Source: Verrucomicrobiia bacterium
GTDB taxonomy: Bacteria; Verrucomicrobiota; Verrucomicrobiia; Opitutales; Cerasicoccaceae
Assembly: GCA_030432235.1 (NCBI GenBank)
Contig: JAUIHT010000002.1
Coordinates: 249,136-313,135 of the forward strand
DNA: 64,000 nucleotides
Reading direction: 5' to 3'
The position numbers and the translations under genes are program-made. This document shows, piece by piece, positions 3,860 through 33,818 of the stretch (positions are counted from its first letter, which is position 1; each line of letters starts with the position of its first letter). A model generated the notes under the pieces. The model was not told where the DNA came from and did no database searches. It saw only the letters and a program-made list of their open reading frames with translations.

Positions 3860-5851
3860 TTACAGCAACTCCGCCACTTCCGCCGGATCAGACATCGGCT
3901 CCAGGCACTGAGTACCGACGCACAACTGATAGCCGCTTGGGCCATCCACATCGGCGGGGAGGATAAAGAGCGGTCGCCAGGGGCGCTCGCGCAGGGCAGC
4001 GGCCAGCGCGGCAGGGTCCGCGTCCTTGCACTTGATCACCGCGATGCCGACGGCTTCCTGGCAAAAGCCTGCCAGGGCGTGAGCAACAGCGGACGGCGCG
4101 CGTTCGGCCAGACCGGTGTAACACTTGCGCAGCTCACCCAGCTCGGCGGCGTACTCGGACTTGCCGGTCAGCGCATAGCGTTGGGCGAAGCAATGGACCA
4201 GGCTGCTGTTGCCGGCCGGGCGGGCGTTGTCGAGCCAGTCCTTCTTGCGCGCGGCCAGTTCTTCGTGATCATCGGCCACATAGAAAAAGCCGGCCGCGTG
4301 CTCGTCCCGAAATCTTTTGATCACGACATCCAGCAATTCCTGAGCACGCGCGATATAGGTGGCGCTATCTGCACCAAAAACCTCGGCATAGGCCGCCAGG
4401 GCTAGGTTGGCCTGAATGAAGTCCGCGTGGTCGTCGAGGCAGGCACGATGGCGCGGTCCGTCCGGGTACATCACAGCGGACAAGCGGCCTTCGGCGTCGC
4501 GGCAGTTTTCCCAGAGCCAATCGGCGGTCTCGCGGGCACGGGCGAACCAGTCCCCACGGTCCAGGGCGAAGGCCGCCGTGGTCAGCCCTCGCACCATGAG
4601 GGAATTCCAGGACAACAGACGCTTGGGGTCGCGCCCCGGCGACACGCGCTCCTGACGCGCCTCGAGAAGCTTGGCGCGCATCTCGGTAGCGGCGGTGCGC
4701 AGCATAAAATCGTCCGTGGCCAGCACGGGATTGGTGGTAGCATGTTCGAAGTTGCCGGCGGGTGTCACCCCGTAAAGCGCACAGAACATCTCGGCATCTT
4801 CCTTGCCGAGAACCTCTTCGATTTGCTCGGGCCGCCAGACGTAGTACTTGCCCTCCTCACCCTCGCTGTCAGCATCCAGCGAAGCGGCGAAGCCTTTGCC
4901 GTCACCCGCCATCTCGCGCTCCAGCCAGCCGACGGTTTCCTCAAGCACGGCGGCATAGAGGTGACGTCCGGTGCGCAGCCAGGCCTTGGCGTAGGCGTCC
5001 AGCAGCAGGGCGTTGTCGTAAAGCATCTTTTCGAAGTGCGGAATCTGCCACTGCGCATCGACGCTGTAGCGGCAAAAGCCGCCGCCTATCTGGTCGTAGA
5101 TGCCGCCCATGGCCATGCCGTCGAGGGTCTTCTGCAGAACGAAGTCCAGGCGCTGGGCCAACCCTTTGGTGGACTCCACCGCGCGGCTGCCACGCAGGGC
5201 CAGCAGGAAGTCGACGGCCATCGACGGCGGGAACTTGGGCGCGCTGCCGAAGCCGCCTCGGTCGTCGTCGTGCTGGGAGCAGATGCCCTCCCCCGCGCGC
5301 AGGAGAGCCTGCGGCGAAAGCGCCGAACCGTCTGCGCCAAGCGGCAGATTGGCGTGGGCCATGTTTTTCAAAATGTTCTCGGCGTTCTCCTCCAGGTCAC
5401 TCCGGCTGCGCTTGTAGTAGTCGGCGATGCGCATGAGGAGCTGCGGCCACGGCACGATGCCCTGCCCGGTATCCTCCGGCGGGAAGTAGGTGCCGCCAAA
5501 GAAGGGCCGCCCGTCCGGCAGGCAGAAGACGTTGAGCGGCCAGCCGCCATGGCCGTTAAGCATCTGCACGGCCTCCATGTAAATCTGGTCGATGTCAGGA
5601 CGCTCCTCACGGTCTACCTTGATGCAGACGAAATGATCGTTCATCAGGCCGGCGATGTAGGCGTCCTCGAAGCATTCGCGCTCCATCACGTGGCACCAGT
5701 GGCAGGCCGAGTAGCCGATGGACACCACCAGCGGCTTGTTCTGCGCCCGCGCGGCTTCCAGCGCCTCCGGTCCCCACGGATACCAGTCCACGGGGTTGTT
5801 GGCGTGCTGACGCAGGTAAAGGCTCGGTTCGGCGGCGAGTCGGTTGGGCAT
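3860..5851 (-). CDS. thioredoxin-domain protein YyaL (DUF255 plus six-hairpin glycosidase-like domain)
   Basis: [48 protein letters not shown] is the YyaL/spermatogenesis-associated-20 thioredoxin-like N-terminus. The track ORF extends to 5902. Start was moved to the [11 protein letters not shown] at 5851 by analogy with family N-termini. Confidence 0.85.
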
Positions 5852-30324: not shown

Positions 30325-31314
30325 CTATTCAAGGCGTGAAAGTATGGTGCGCCACCAGTGATAGCTCCCCCGCGAACGCTGGCGCTGACGCGAGCGGCGA
30401 TCCGTCGGCAACTGCTCCTCGATGAAGCGCGGCCCCTCGGGCACACGGTGGAATCCAAAGCGACTGGGCAGCTTCGTGTACAACGAACGAGGCGGCCCAT
30501 ACCGTGAATTGAGCTGCTTGAACCACAGTCCGGACTCCCAAGTATGGAAGTAAACCATGCTGACCTCGAGCTCCTCGTAAAGGAACCAGAGCGCAGCCGA
30601 CAGCATGGCCTCGTCCCAAAGGCTCTGCATGGGCTGGATGTGCTCTTTAAAGTACATCAACGCTTTTCTAACAGGCACATCAGACCAACTTCCGCTCAGG
30701 GAGACCTTACCACCCTTCAGGCTTTTCAGTAGCGCCTGCTGTTCGAACAATGCGTCTCGCAACCAGTCATTCTGGATTTCCTCAATGACCGCGATGCCAC
30801 GCAACATGTCCAGGTCGATACGAGTCCAGGCCATGGTGGTGTAGCGTGGGCCCATGAGCACAGGGTGGCACATCGCTCCGAGCAAGAAGGGATTGGCACT
30901 ATCCTCGCACAGACTCCCGTAACAGCGGTCGTGCTCCGCGGAGAAGTTCAGTTGTAGCACCAGATTCCAGCCGGGGCGAGACGTCTGGTACCAGGAGTCG
31001 TGGCGTTTGCCACTGTCACCCCAGCGACCGACGGTCAACCGGAAGCGGTGAAGCTTGTGGGTTTCAAACCCGTACTCCATCAGACGCTCGGCCGTGATGA
31101 CGCCGTCCGGCAGAGTCATTAAAAACTGCTTGAAGCGCGGAAGCTGCAGGAAGCGCCTCAGGTGCGCATGCTTTTTTAATTCGTGCACCTTGATGCTTCG
31201 CTTGCCCAACTTCCAGGCCAGCATTTGAAAAGCGTAACGGTCCTTGAAGTAGTAGTATTTGGTGCGGCCCTTGGGAAGGTAGCCGCGAATCAGATTCAAT
31301 TCTTTGAGTTCCAT
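30325..31314 (-). CDS. hypothetical protein (329 aa, basic C-terminal tail), immediately downstream of the SPFH gene
   Basis: No recognisable catalytic motifs. Reading frame is supported by length and codon usage. Arg-rich C-terminus RRSRQRQRSRG. Confidence 0.45.
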   Translation of the reverse strand: MELKELNLIRGYLPKGRTKYYYFKDRYAFQMLAWKLGKRSIKVHELKKHAHLRRFLQLPRFKQFLMTLPDGVITAERLMEYGFETHKLHRFRLTVGRWGDSGKRHDSWYQTSRPGWNLVLQLNFSAEHDRCYGSLCEDSANPFLLGAMCHPVLMGPRYTTMAWTRIDLDMLRGIAVIEEIQNDWLRDALFEQQALLKSLKGGKVSLSGSWSDVPVRKALMYFKEHIQPMQSLWDEAMLSAALWFLYEELEVSMVYFHTWESGLWFKQLNSRYGPPRSLYTKLPSRFGFHRVPEGPRFIEEQLPTDRRSRQRQRSRGSYHWWRTILSRLE

Positions 31315-31441: not shown

Positions 31442-32578
31442 CTAGATGAGCTTGACGATGCGCTTGCTCAGCTCCTGCCCGTCTCCGACGAAGATTTGCA
31501 GGTTGGCCTTTTCGGTGATCTTTTCGACCGCCTCGAGCTCGCGCAGGCGCATAAGGGCCGGGTTCTGCTCAATCAGCTTGGCGGTGTTCAGCTGAGAGCG
31601 CATAGCCGCGGTTTCCTCACGACGCTTGATGTTGTTGGCCTGGGCCGCCTTTTCGGCTTCGATGACCTGGTTGAGCAGTTCCTTCATATCACCCGGCAGG
31701 ATGATGTCACGGATACCCAGCCCCAGGACTTCGAGCCCGTAGGTGGTGGCCTTTTCCTTCATGGCCGCGAAGGCTTCGCGGGCCACGGCAGTCTTGTCCC
31801 CGAGCAGCGCGTCGAGGGTGCGGCCCCCGACTTCCGCGCGGATGACAAGCTGGACTTCGCGGTAGAGCGCCTGCGCGGCGTCTTCCGCAGTTTCGGCGAC
31901 CTTGCGGACGTCCGCGATGCGGTAGGTCAGTACCGCATTCAGACGTAGGGTCACCTTGTCGGCGGTCATGATTTCCTGACCGCTAACGTCGAGGACCTTC
32001 TCACGCAGGTCGTACTGGTAGAGCTTGACCTTGCCGGCGTTCTTCCAGAAGGCGTAACGGCCCGGGCGGAGAATCTCCGCAAACTGACCGTTCAGGTAAA
32101 GCACCCCCAGCTTTCCGTCCTCGATGTCGTGGACGTCCAGGTAGAGGTTGCTCACGCTGTTCTTCAGGATGACTTCGGCTTCGGCGTGCTCGAAGCGAAC
32201 GCCCTCACGGACGTTGACGACTTCGATGCGCACCTTGACCAACCCCTTCCAGTAGGCGTAAAGCCCCGGAGTCAGGATGCCGTGGAAACGGCCGTCCAGC
32301 CACACCAGCGCACGCTGGTTGTCGTTCAGGTCGACGAACTCGGCTCGTTCAGCCACCGCTTCCGCCTCGCGGAGCTGCTTGAGCTGGTTATTCTGAAGCA
32401 TCAGCCACGGCTCATTCAGGTCGGAAACTTCCACCTGAGTGCGCCACAGCGGGTCGAAGCGCCAAAAGCGCCCCGCCTCCAGGAGTTCGACGAAACGACC
32501 TTCACGAAAGACCAGACCGACGCTTTCGTACGGCACATGGATTCGCTTGATAATGAACATTGTCGTTTTGTTTTGCAT
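31442..32578 (-). CDS. SPFH/band-7 domain protein with triplicated N-terminal strand motif
   Basis: C-terminal half is an SPFH core with a coiled-coil tail. The N-terminal half carries three copies of VxLxxRxGxFxxxLxPGxYxxWK. Start was set to MQNKTTMFIIK at 32578. Confidence 0.7.
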   Translation of the reverse strand: MQNKTTMFIIKRIHVPYESVGLVFREGRFVELLEAGRFWRFDPLWRTQVEVSDLNEPWLMLQNNQLKQLREAEAVAERAEFVDLNDNQRALVWLDGRFHGILTPGLYAYWKGLVKVRIEVVNVREGVRFEHAEAEVILKNSVSNLYLDVHDIEDGKLGVLYLNGQFAEILRPGRYAFWKNAGKVKLYQYDLREKVLDVSGQEIMTADKVTLRLNAVLTYRIADVRKVAETAEDAAQALYREVQLVIRAEVGGRTLDALLGDKTAVAREAFAAMKEKATTYGLEVLGLGIRDIILPGDMKELLNQVIEAEKAAQANNIKRREETAAMRSQLNTAKLIEQNPALMRLRELEAVEKITEKANLQIFVGDGQELSKRIVKLI

Positions 32579-32965
32579 TGTTAATGCAGGACTGACGGCC
32601 TGCGTTCGTTTTGGCCATAGGACCAAAGTGTCTAAAAAATGAGCCCGGGAGAGCGGACGACGAGGACGCGCCGCCACAGGCAAGCTCCACGGGGCTCGGC
32701 TTGAGCCGGGGTCAAACCGGAGCGCAGCCATGACTCCGCTTCCAACACCACTGTATCAGTCTCCTAATACAGATGCGTTTTCCACTTCGTGCATGCTTTG
32801 CTCCGGTTGTCTCCGGGCGGTATCCGCCGGGCCGCTGGTGGGCTGCCTGCTGGAGCCAGGGAAGAACGCCCCACACGGACGCATGACGCCCCTGCCCTGC
32901 TCCGGGCTTTGCGTGTCGCCGCCGCTCTCCGCGGGCGGTTTTCGAAGCCGGTGATTAGCCGGCGG

Positions 32966-33038
32966 GTGACGAGGAGGATTCGAACCTCCGACATCCGGCT
33001 CCCTAAGCCAGTGTGCTATCCACTGCACTACCGTCGCA
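32966..33038 (-). tRNA. tRNA-Pro-like, anticodon AGG (A34)
   Basis: Hand-folded cloverleaf: acceptor GCGACGG/TCGTCAC (one C-A mismatch), D arm GTGC-AGTGGATA-GCAC, anticodon stem CTGGC/GCCGG with loop TTAGGGA, T arm GGAGG-TTCGAAT-CCTCC. The Pro-type loop (U33, G37, A38) has A at position 34. Its 5' G at 33038 is shared with the neighbouring tRNA. Confidence 0.5.
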
Positions 33039-33110
33039 TACTGTCCGGGAATCGAACCCGAGACCGATGGTTTATGAGACCACTGCTCTACCAACTGAGC
33101 TACCAGTATC
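33038..33110 (-). tRNA. tRNA-Met (CAU), elongator-like (an Ile2/lysidine type cannot be excluded)
   Basis: Acceptor ATACTGG/ACAGTAT (A1-U72, G7.A66 mismatch), D arm GCTC-AGTTGGTA-GAGC, anticodon loop CTCATAA, T arm TCGGG-TTCGATT-CCCGG. The discriminator position coincides with G1 of the next tRNA. Confidence 0.6.
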
Positions 33111-33112
33111 GT

Positions 33113-33188
33113 GGTGCGGCCCGCTGGAGTCGAACCAGCGACCTACCCCTTCGTACAGGGCTGCTCTACCAACTGAGCTAGGGCCGCA
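33113..33188 (-). tRNA. tRNA-Arg (ACG)
   Basis: Perfect acceptor GCGGCCC/GGGCCGC, D arm GCTC-AGTTGGTA-GAGC, anticodon loop GTACGAA, T arm GCTGG-TTCGACT-CCAGC, discriminator A, CCA encoded. Confidence 0.85.
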
Positions 33189-33289
33189 TTTTCCTGAGAC
33201 CGTCCAGAACGTCAAGCGGGACACCGCACTCCAACAGGCTGGGCCAGGGAATACCGTGCCGCCGACCGGCGATCAGAAAGTGATATATG

Positions 33290-33360
33290 CTGCGGGGGAA
33301 GGATTCGAACCTTCGATGGCGGAATCAAAATCCGCTGTGTTACCGCTACACCACCCCGCA
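33290..33360 (-). tRNA. tRNA-Gln (UUG)
   Basis: Acceptor TGCGGGG/CCCCGCA (U1-A72, as in bacterial Gln), D arm GTGT-AGCGGTA-ACAC, anticodon loop TTTTGAT, T arm GAAGG-TTCGAAT-CCTTC, discriminator G. Confidence 0.8.
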
Positions 33361-33370
33361 AGGTAAAAAG

Positions 33371-33442
33371 TATCCGCAGCCGGAATCGAACCGGCGTTCT
33401 CACAGTGAAAGCGTGATGTCCTGACCACTAGACGATGCGGAC
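33371..33442 (-). tRNA. tRNA-Glu (UUC)
   Basis: Acceptor GTCCGCA/TGCGGAT (G1.U72 wobble), D arm GTCT-AGTGGTCA-GGAC, anticodon loop CTTTCAC, T arm GCCGG-TTCGATT-CCGGC. Confidence 0.75.
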
Positions 33443-33448
33443 AAAAAG

Positions 33449-33524
33449 TGGAGGCGCCGCCAGGATTCGAACCTGGTGAAACGGATTTTGCAGACCCGTG
33501 CCCTGGCCATTCGGGATCGGCGCC
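33449..33524 (-). tRNA. tRNA-Cys (GCA)
   Basis: Acceptor GGCGCCG/CGGCGCC, 3-bp D stem, anticodon loop CTGCAAA, T arm CCAGG-TTCGAAT-CCTGG, U73 discriminator (Cys identity element), CCA encoded. Confidence 0.8.
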
Positions 33525-33664
33525 GTATCAGATAAAAAACTTCGGGAGGCCGCCGCCCGGTCACCCCCGCAACACCTGTCAGGGTGCCATTGCCTGGCGC
33601 TATGTGACCGGGTGGGCTGCCTTCATCCCGAAATGTGTTTTGGGGATACTGTTAGAACCCCAAG

Positions 33665-33737
33665 TGGGAGCACATGGTTTCGAGCCATGACCTCCCGGTC
33701 TTCAACCGGACGTGCAGACCATCTACACCATACTCCC
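33665..33737 (-). tRNA. tRNA-Phe (GAA) with non-canonical T loop
   Basis: Acceptor GGGAGTA/TGCTCCC, D arm GTGT-(9-nt loop)-GCAC with G18G19, anticodon loop TTGAAGA (G37 rather than A37), T arm CATGG-CTCGAAA-CCATG (C at position 54). Confidence 0.6.
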
Positions 33738-33745
33738 TGAAATGG

Positions 33746-33818
33746 CTCGAAGGGCAGGCTACGATCCTGCAACTGCGTCCTTAACAGGGACGTGTTCTGC
33801 CAATTGAACTACCTTCGA
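33746..33818 (-). tRNA. tRNA-Asn (GUU) with non-canonical T loop
   Basis: Perfect acceptor TCGAAGG/CCTTCGA (U1-A72, as in E. coli Asn), D arm GTTC-AATTGGCA-GAAC, anticodon loop CTGTTAA, T arm GCAGG-ATCGTAG-CCTGC (A54/U58 swapped relative to the usual T54/A58), discriminator G. Confidence 0.65.

Follow-up and report, generated by a model that had tools for sequence, protein, structure and literature searches.

How should one read a compact block of eight tRNA genes, several of which depart from canonical tRNA structure, on a bacterial chromosome? The block lies on the minus strand of a 64-kilobase (64-kb) stretch of DNA from a Verrucomicrobiia bacterium (contig JAUIHT010000002.1 of assembly GCA_030432235.1; the whole stretch is called the window here), and a preliminary description of it had offered two explanations for the oddities, namely lineage-specific tRNA variants or pseudo-tRNAs. 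We consider it probable that these are eight functional, structured tRNA genes, and that they form the local version of an order-wide array that is linked to a slipin gene and contains a module whose anticodons shift between genomes.

ARAGORN and the Rfam covariance model RF00005 (gathering score 29) converged on eight tRNAs in the 64 kb, all of them on the minus strand, and called no further ones; RF00005 scores lay between 39.9 and 66.2 bits. Both methods agree with the isotypes first proposed (Asn, Phe, Cys, Glu, Gln, Arg, Met and Pro), and covariance-model folding rejected none of the genes and left their anticodons as first read:

33746-33818, minus strand: tRNA-Asn(GTT), core block; T loop AUCGUAG, U1-A72, CCA encoded at 33743-33745
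33665-33737, minus strand: tRNA-Phe(GAA), core block; G37, T loop CUCGAAA (C54), D loop of 11 nucleotides, no encoded CCA
33452-33524, minus strand: tRNA-Cys(GCA), core block; lowest score of the eight (39.9 bits), CCA encoded at 33449-33451
33371-33442, minus strand: tRNA-Glu(TTC), core block; canonical, 60.9 bits
33290-33360, minus strand: tRNA-Gln(TTG), core block; canonical, U1-A72, 66.2 bits
33115-33187, minus strand: tRNA-Arg(ACG), module position A; G32 (loop GUACGAA), U20 rather than A20, CCA encoded at 33112-33114
33037-33109 including a shared discriminator (the gene call ends at 33038), minus strand: tRNA-Met(CAU), module position B; A1-U72, G7.A66 mismatch, G73
32965-33037, minus strand: tRNA-Pro(AGG), module position C; G1-C72, C2.A71 mismatch, C73, no encoded CCA

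The individual oddities were borne out by the model alignment and a table of positions: the AGG anticodon of Pro in the loop UUAGGGA (A34, G37), the A1-U72 acceptor end of Met, the Phe T loop CUCGAAA (C54) together with G37, and the Asn T loop AUCGUAG (A54, U58). Spacers inside the sub-clusters are indeed tight, measuring 5-10 nucleotides, or 2-6 when counted after an encoded CCA. The reported overlap of Met and Pro by one nucleotide is also real, with the Met discriminator G serving as G1 of Pro, except that the shared base is 33037 and not 33038. Each of the three sub-clusters opens with a gene that encodes its CCA (Asn, Cys and Arg); the other five genes lack it.

A canonical T loop carries U54-U55-C56...A58, with a reverse-Hoogsteen pair between 54 and 58. 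Six of the eight genes have this arrangement, Asn (A54/U58) and Phe (C54) being the two that deviate. The anticodon loop is canonical (seven nucleotides, pyrimidine 32, U33 and purine 37) in all genes apart from Arg-ACG, which differs by its G32 (7/8). Departures in the acceptor stem or discriminator were found in Met (G7.A66, and a discriminator that is nucleotide 1 of Pro) and in Pro (C2.A71). The Cys gene has A8-U9 and two non-standard pairs in its D stem.

The slipin-linked array and its core block

The gene that anchors the array lies directly downstream of it:

31442-32560, minus strand: slipin/SPFH gene (Band_7, Pfam), 372 amino acids; the start codon may sit upstream, as far as 32731

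We compared the slipin loci of nine relatives from at least two families (Puniceicoccus vermicola, Cerasicoccus fimbriatus, six metagenome-assembled genomes (MAGs) and one variant from the Logan assemblies; individual sequences are given labels such as L155), using 10-13 kb around slipin in each relative and the 64-kb window in the source genome. In all nine relatives, a gene-free stretch directly upstream of slipin holds 7-13 tRNAs on the same strand, and every member detected by Rfam scored above the gathering score. Genes farther upstream of the array differ in each genome. The arrays share a common core order, (Trp/His/Asp)-Asn-Phe ... (Leu-CAG, Lys, Ile) Met-Glu-Gln-Arg, followed by a spacer of ~100 nucleotides and then by a terminal module of two or three tRNAs that are separated by 0-2 nucleotides or overlap. 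The module ends 400-520 nucleotides ahead of the annotated slipin start, a distance that is near-constant across arrays. These comparisons suggest an array that has been kept upstream of slipin throughout the order Puniceicoccales, a group of marine Verrucomicrobia, and that is built of three parts: a core, a hairpin spacer and a module.

The core block would be the part that keeps its anticodons. When anticodons were masked, the Asn, Phe, Cys, Glu and Gln genes of the window were each nearest to a gene of a relative with the same anticodon, at 76-91% identity (for instance, Phe to the Phe of L159 at 91% and Cys to the Cys of L158 at 83%). All eight array Phe genes carry G37, and their T loops vary: CUCGAAA in the window, UGCGAUU in four genes, and GUCGAGU and UUCGAUU. 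Asn has orthologs in six relatives, and in the resulting set of seven genes 96.1% of the cells in stems are paired, with eight double-change pairs. At positions 54 and 58, three of these orthologs have A/U, two have U/A and two have G/G. From these alignments we read the Asn and Phe deviations as inherited, structurally constrained array variants and not as damage. In the core as a whole (Asn-Phe, a terminator-like hairpin, then Cys-Glu-Gln), G37 and C54 of Phe and the T loops of Asn would then be traits under structural selection.

Unusual elbows and arms occur elsewhere in the relatives' arrays. Fourteen array tRNAs (Phe, Lys, Met, Glu, Ile and Gln, in L155, L157, L161 and L162) carry UGC, with G55, in place of UUC in the T loop; the window lacks such genes. 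G55 is coupled to the loss of G18 in 14 of 14 (A in 13, C in one); on the alignments, the two sides of the 18:55 elbow contact have changed in concert. A short-arm "tRNA-Leu(CAG)" with A37 rather than G37 is present in L155 (4296-4372), L157 (4973-5049), L159 (4713-4789) and L161 (4866-4942), as well as in L165 (~1240 nucleotides before the slipin start), and the amino acid that it carries is uncertain. Canonical long-arm Leu-CAG genes stand alone in related MAGs (L013, L021). Two proline-anticodon genes, Pro-CGG of L159 (4960-5056, 97 nucleotides) and Pro-UGG of L165 (95 nucleotides, ~935 nucleotides before the slipin start), have a variable region enlarged by a long arm or an insertion. Long variable regions are unusual for tRNA-Pro.

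The terminal module and its Pro(AGG) gene

The Arg, Met and Pro genes of the window were, with anticodons masked, each nearest to genes with other anticodons that occupy the same position of the module:

Position A, nearest genes: Arg-ACG of the window to Met-CAU of L159 (80%)
Position B, nearest genes: Met-CAU of the window to genes with UAU, GAA, ACG or GAU anticodons or with an 8-nucleotide loop (77-81%)
Position C, nearest genes: Pro-AGG of the window to Thr-CGU of L158 (75%) and Leu-AAG of L155 (69%)
Position A, anticodons across nine genomes: ACG, CAU, AUC, AAG, UAG, UAU, AUU, GUC and an irregular loop
Position B, anticodons across nine genomes: CAU, GAA (twice), ACG, GAU, UAU, CUG (L165), CGU and an 8-nucleotide loop
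Position C, anticodons across nine genomes: AGG, AAG (three times), CAG and GAA

The CGU gene of L158 is tabulated here under position B; an extra tRNA that Rfam places in the middle of that module makes it position C.

Scaffold B, the tRNA body at position B, shows the pattern most fully. Body identity averages 84% versus 57% in the anticodon loop. Pairing holds in 94.6% of the cells of its cloverleaf, seven pairs show double changes, and none of 500 shuffles reached the observed value; controls with slid pairing partners, for scaffold B and for Asn, were 24-43% paired. The anticodon stem is 100% paired, four of its five pairs covarying, and the acceptor end is weak: 1:72 is unpaired in five of eight genomes and 2:71 in three of eight. 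In scaffold A, the loops of relatives often read G32-C33 ... C38, which makes the G32 of the window's Arg-ACG look like a leftover from it. Scaffold C is marked by 5'-GCGA and C2.A71, which are common to the window's Pro and to the long-arm Leu-AAG and Leu-CAG genes of L157, L161 and L162. Positions B and C overlap in four genomes, by one nucleotide in the window and by two in L157, L161 and L162 (Rfam coordinates, read at the junctions); the weak 1:72 end of "Met" and its overlap with "Pro" would thus be traits of scaffolds B and C.

All three genes combine synteny, bodies similar to genes with other anticodons and a similar distance to slipin. Judged by these comparisons, the module is a set of three conserved scaffolds whose anticodon loops have apparently been rewritten between genomes by anticodon shifts. 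The explanation by lineage-specific variants in the preliminary description hence holds in part: it fits the core block, with G37 in all eight Phe genes and covarying 54/58 in Asn, and the Met/Pro-type overlap seen in four genomes, and it does not fit Pro(AGG), which is found in none of the nine related arrays. Pro(AGG) thus appears to be the present state of the variable position C, and not a lineage-fixed isoacceptor.

The loop of Pro(AGG), UUAGGGA, differs from UUAAGGA of L162 by a single substitution, A35G. Most likely, the gene arose by this one change in an AAG-type loop that already had A34, and it would carry A34 because of that descent. In a total of 90 array tRNAs, every A34 anticodon other than that of Arg belongs to the module: AGG, AUC, AUU and, in four genes, AAG. 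Two of these, both on scaffold A, fall in two-codon boxes: Asp-AUC of L155 (5328-5399) and Asn-AUU of L163 (~722 nucleotides before the slipin start). To our knowledge, natural tRNAs for two-codon boxes practically never carry A34. Asp-AUC and Asn-AUU, whose loop lacks U33 and possibly closes to five nucleotides, may not decode.

Does the A34 of Pro become inosine? It had been suggested that the variant would have consequences for TadA-like deaminases. This is unlikely for Pro, since positions 35 and 37 of its loop do not match the TadA target and the E. coli enzyme leaves an AGG tRNA unmodified (PMC11066159). The TadA motif U33-A34-C35-G36-A37 is absent from Pro (G35, G37) and present in Arg-ACG, though with G32; the window contains no gene for TadA. 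Left unmodified, A34 lets a tRNA-Pro(AGG) decode CCU and CCC to about the same extent, and E. coli TadA does not deaminate it (PMC11066159; PMC3711424). In the window's genes CCC makes up 43% and CCU 10% of proline codons, so that a tRNA reading both would be useful. The anticodon identity elements for prolyl-tRNA synthetase (ProRS), G35-G36 and G37, are present in Pro(AGG), and charging by ProRS through G35-G36 is assumed here.

The core and the module are set apart by spacers with structure of their own:

33525-33664, minus strand: spacer 1, from Phe to Cys; a long, very stable hairpin (-61.6 kcal/mol) with a U run behind it, terminator-like
33188-33289, minus strand: conserved structured spacer or leader of ~95 nucleotides before the module; a motif, a hairpin of ~55 nucleotides and the box GACGTTCT

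The motif is present as CCGGGCGGCGGC in spacer 1 (33549-33560) and as CCGGTCGGCGGC in the leader (33258-33269). In its general form, CCGGNCGGCGGC, it has two copies in the 64 kb, both in array spacers and on the array strand, where 0.18 would be expected by chance, and its placement is shared by six of nine genomes. Related copies are found upstream of the L163 and L165 arrays. The box GACGTTCT overlaps a sigma-70-like match found in a promoter scan (TTGACG-16-GAAAAT, 33215-33188). The leader element recurs at the matching place in L155, L157, L158, L159, L161, L162 and L165, and in an alignment across seven genomes 9 of 23 predicted hairpin pairs show compensatory changes (RNAalifold). Searching Rfam with the leader gave no family at E <= 1. 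Candidate roles for it are those of a promoter or operator, of a processing site and of a regulatory RNA. Given the terminator-like hairpin of spacer 1 and the promoter-like box of the leader, the array is probably transcribed as two or three units.

Housekeeping set, spare tRNAs or other roles

If the array is the slipin-linked set that we propose, its expression can be pictured as follows. Two or three transcripts would be cut by RNase P at the 5' end of each tRNA, and the products of the five genes without CCA, including Met with its shared discriminator, would then be trimmed at the 3' end and completed by the CCA-adding enzyme. Pro(AGG) would be charged through G35-G36 and, with A34 unmodified, would read CCU and the abundant CCC. 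At least the module would be a dispensable, evolvable supplement and not the sole source of its tRNAs. For the array as a whole, the roles to be considered are those of supplementary decoders, of a backup under stress or against toxins, or of tRNA-shaped elements that do not decode.

The case for dispensability comes from array content. None of the anticodons is shared by all nine arrays. Essential tRNAs with a single isoacceptor are patchy (Asn in 6/9, Lys 6/9, His 4/9, Cys 3/9, Trp 2/9 and Tyr 1/9); Gln-TTG is found in 8/9. Some relatives hold duplicates within an array, with two Phe-GAA, two Arg-ACG or two Leu-AAG. Patchy content, the lack of a universal anticodon and duplicates all suggest that members are dispensable, and because essential types are often absent from the arrays, they must be encoded elsewhere. 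Anticodon change points the same way, since a sole essential copy could not change its anticodon.

Several points weigh against this reading. The window's own array has no duplicate anticodons, which fits a real need, and its module supplies ACG and CAU where the window lacks the core Arg and Met genes of L157 and L161. Our count of tRNA genes covers the 64-kb window of the source genome, and the literature searched gave no tRNA counts for the genera of the relatives. The homology of the short-arm gene at position C in the window with the long-arm genes of L157, L161 and L162 is drawn from position, 5'-GCGA and C2.A71, and the identity of Pro to short-arm position-C genes is only 69-75%. Array tRNAs are 81-89% identical between genomes versus 97% for stand-alone tRNAs at similar protein divergence, a thin comparison that involves a single tRNA-Ser family. 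The acceptor determinants of E. coli ProRS are C1-G72 and A73. Pro(AGG) has G1-C72 and C73, without the E. coli-type G72 and A73. Finally, the array reading, including expression, processing, charging and modification, is drawn from sequence.

The most likely alternative is an ordinary housekeeping operon, in which the eight are the sole genes for their anticodons and the oddities are tolerated lineage variants. Such an operon would be at home among core-chromosome genes free of mobile elements, at a locus found in every relative examined; the window has one anticodon per amino acid and no duplicates, as a normal decoding set would, and, in the absence of core Arg and Met, has precisely ACG and CAU in its module; and the stems are under purifying selection. 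Yet a housekeeping set would not be expected to have such unstable content, with no universal anticodon, essential types often absent and duplicates in relatives, nor to change anticodons at orthologous positions in every genome. The tRNAs of relatives' other loci differ as well: none of nine stand-alone tRNAs there has a non-canonical T or D loop, versus 23 of 72 array tRNAs. We regard the housekeeping explanation as possible but somewhat unlikely.

Returning to the anticodon-shifting array, one may go a step further and ask whether its loops change by drift. We suggest, tentatively and with more doubt than confidence, that the module is an "anticodon-diversifying" cassette, three scaffolds behind a structured leader whose loops are under diversifying selection. 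If so, each lineage would obtain other spare or unconventional decoders, such as A34 in two-codon boxes, short-arm "Leu" and irregular loops, and the purpose could be to counter toxins that cleave or modify certain anticodon loops, or to re-tune or blur decoding under stress. Together with the relatives' changes from G18/U55 to A18/G55, the cassette would amount to a parallel, semi-orthogonal tRNA pool in a free-living bacterial order.

A different possibility is that the module RNAs are tRNA-shaped but do not decode, serving as RNase P punctuation of read-through towards slipin, as decoys or spare substrates for toxins, or as amino-acid donors outside the ribosome. Module loops in relatives are often unfit for decoding (C33 or G33, or effectively 5, 6 or 8 nucleotides), 1:72 and 2:71 of scaffold B are frequently unpaired as noted above, scaffold C keeps its C2.A71 mismatch, the distance to the slipin start is near-constant at 400-520 nucleotides, and RtcB follows downstream in two relatives. 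There are precedents in non-ribosomal tRNAs with variant elbows (PMC4574755) and in anticodon-loop change as an escape from nucleases (PMC10264068). All three loops of the window's module, on the other hand, are regular, with seven nucleotides, U33 and purine 37, and the anticodon stem is held by compensatory change, which RNase P punctuation alone would not need. The window has no RtcB, and slipin and its partner match no defence model. We therefore find a non-decoding role doubtful.

The neighbourhood bears on a mobile origin. The window is flanked by ordinary core-chromosome genes (efp, PPi-type PEPCK, pheS, pheT, yebC, a fatty-acid desaturase, GAPDH and a TonB receptor); the open reading frames scanned across the 64 kb include no integrase, phage or mobile-element genes, and the guanine-plus-cytosine (G+C) content shows no local anomaly at the array. 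Its EF-P is 83% identical to that of a Verrucomicrobiota MAG and 75% to that of Cerasicoccus. By these gene contents the window reads as core chromosome of a Verrucomicrobiota bacterium of the Puniceicoccales/Opitutales group. The efp loci of the EF-P relatives have no tRNAs nearby, and tblastx finds nothing syntenic there beyond efp; since efp synteny is not conserved, the absence of tRNAs near it is uninformative. The slipin of the window is 100% identical to a 372-amino-acid protein (P0001), and it is followed by a conserved gene:

30325-31314, minus strand: protein of 329 amino acids, family unassigned

Homologs of this protein stand directly after slipin in L155, L161 and L162 (tblastx), and RtcB, an RNA repair ligase, comes after the homolog in two of them, L155 and L162. 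The protein has no match in Pfam, NCBIfam or PADLOC. A gene of the PDDEXK_3 nuclease family lies inside the L155 array (4779-5195), and weak HNH_5 matches occur just past slipin in L158 (7625-7930) and L166 (1762-2067). The array is identical in two Logan assemblies from separate samples. Logan contigs (SRR24442552, ERR3428548) break at the Glu/Gln junction, with L001 ending at ~33362 and L153 and L154 starting at ~33376, possibly because strains differ in array content or because a tRNA segment is repeated.

An array recently acquired from a phage or mobile element, of the kind that Santamaria-Gomez et al. (2021) term an "L-array", would account for some of this: upstream genes differ in each genome, nuclease-family matches occur in L155, L158 and L166, the RtcB linkage recalls the L-array of Anabaena (PMC8421152), and both the A54/U58 Asn T loop and Pro(AGG) are found in phage tRNA arrays. 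In IMG/VR the Asn T loop has A54/U58 in 43 contigs and G54/G58 in three, all within phage tRNA arrays (L093-L135, L167-L169) with very different stems, and in phage arrays of the A54/U58 pattern the variant is present in 41 of 42 Asn versus 2 of 134 other tRNAs. Several large phage arrays hold tRNA-Pro(AGG) beside other A34 tRNAs. In viral scans, Phe with C54 and G37 was seen in two contigs only, and Met-Pro adjacency involved mostly Pro-UGG. GenBank phages matched the A54/U58 tRNA-Asn at 77-84%, none of them diagnostic, and a metagenome scan for Asn and Phe pairs with both odd T loops gave eight matches, all by chance, in coding DNA without a tRNA. A recent phage origin was rejected: a blastn search of 50,697 phage records with the 3-kb region returned generic tRNA-level matches only. 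Phage tRNAs are 62-74% identical to those of the window, and scaffold B has no match in IMG/VR; we therefore read the phage similarities as parallels and not as recent transfer. Recent mobile acquisition is very improbable, as the array is present in all relatives examined and not sporadic, has few genes (7-13), and in the window comes with no phage gene, integrase or G+C anomaly.

Decaying pseudo-tRNAs, the second explanation of the preliminary description, are scarcely credible: G7.A66 of Met, C2.A71 of Pro, the odd D arm of Cys and the odd T loops might suggest decay, but all eight genes pass the tRNA model well above the Rfam threshold, stems are kept by compensatory change among orthologs (94.6% of cells paired and seven double-change pairs in the Met scaffold, 96.1% and eight in Asn) in a signal that is lost when pairing is slid, C2.A71 is itself conserved across genomes, and the relatives' G55/G18 elbow changes are coordinated in 14/14.

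Relation to known systems

Bacterial tRNA arrays have been described as A-arrays and L-arrays (Santamaria-Gomez et al. 2021, PMC8421152) and as tRNA array units (Tran et al. 2015, PMC4758250), and redundant tRNAs in arrays were predicted to undergo anticodon shifts (Tran et al., PMC4758250). The slipin array resembles these in its dense, tandem, same-strand arrangement, in the isoacceptor redundancy of relatives and in occasional linkage to RtcB or a nuclease. It is too short, at 7-13 genes, for an L-array or array unit, which have 20 or more and up to 43, and its presence at the loci of nine of nine relatives does not match the sporadic distribution of L-arrays. It also differs in being anchored to slipin and in its terminal three-gene scaffold module, and it is not periodic as many A-arrays are. 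Phage tRNA arrays are likewise compact with minimal spacers and share Asn A54/U58 or G54/G58 and occasional Pro-AGG, Leu-AAG, Thr-AGU and Ser-AGA, whereas the slipin array is chromosomal and vertically persistent, with no phage genes nearby and with tRNA identity to phages at a generic level. Overlapping tRNA genes are known from human mitochondria, where the discriminator of the upstream gene is nucleotide 1 of the downstream one in the tRNA-Tyr/tRNA-Cys pair. Met and Pro share base 33037 in the same way, here in a bacterium and with an overlap of 1-2 nucleotides kept in four genomes.

Orthologous genes with different anticodons are known from anticodon shifts and alloacceptor remolding in eukaryotic nuclear genomes (PMC3923123) and metazoan mitochondria (PMC4783518). 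Unlike those cases, the module is on a bacterial chromosome, involves three adjacent genes and has a new anticodon in nearly every genome, A34 and irregular loops included. Bacterial A34 beyond Arg-ACG has been reported for Leu-AAG (Lactobacillales, Oenococcus), Thr-AGU (Mycoplasma) and a mutant Salmonella tRNA-Pro(AGG) (PMC11066159, PMC3711424, PMC13249217); we found no description of a natural chromosomal tRNA-Pro(AGG) of bacteria in the A34-tRNA literature searched. The window's Pro(AGG) likewise is a genome-encoded A34 in a four-codon box, but it differs in being one state of a variable position and in its acceptor end (G1-C72, C73, C2.A71). The G55/A18 tRNAs of the relatives resemble in their elbow the non-proteinogenic cell-wall tRNA-Gly of staphylococci (PMC4574755), from which they differ by comprising many isotypes, by having A18/G55 rather than U18-U19 or C18-U19, and by having no known link to peptidoglycan.

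What would such a locus mean? Few genes are as strongly conserved as those for transfer RNAs, and bacterial anticodons are treated as fixed. Here, at a chromosomal locus kept across an order, selection would preserve the tRNA body while almost every genome has a different anticodon, and the array would also vary universal T-loop and elbow positions in a coordinated fashion. For annotation this calls for caution, as isotype calls made from the anticodon only (Pro, Leu, Asp and Asn here) may misstate the amino acid carried. Puniceicoccus and Cerasicoccus offer a culturable natural system in which to study tRNA identity change, the origin of A34 outside Arg, the processing of overlapping genes and the purpose of short arrays. 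In the literature searched we found no description of a short, slipin-anchored array that is order-wide and combines a leader with an anticodon-variable scaffold module. Arrays, anticodon shifts, non-Arg A34, overlapping genes and elbow variants are each known separately; it is their combination that would be new.

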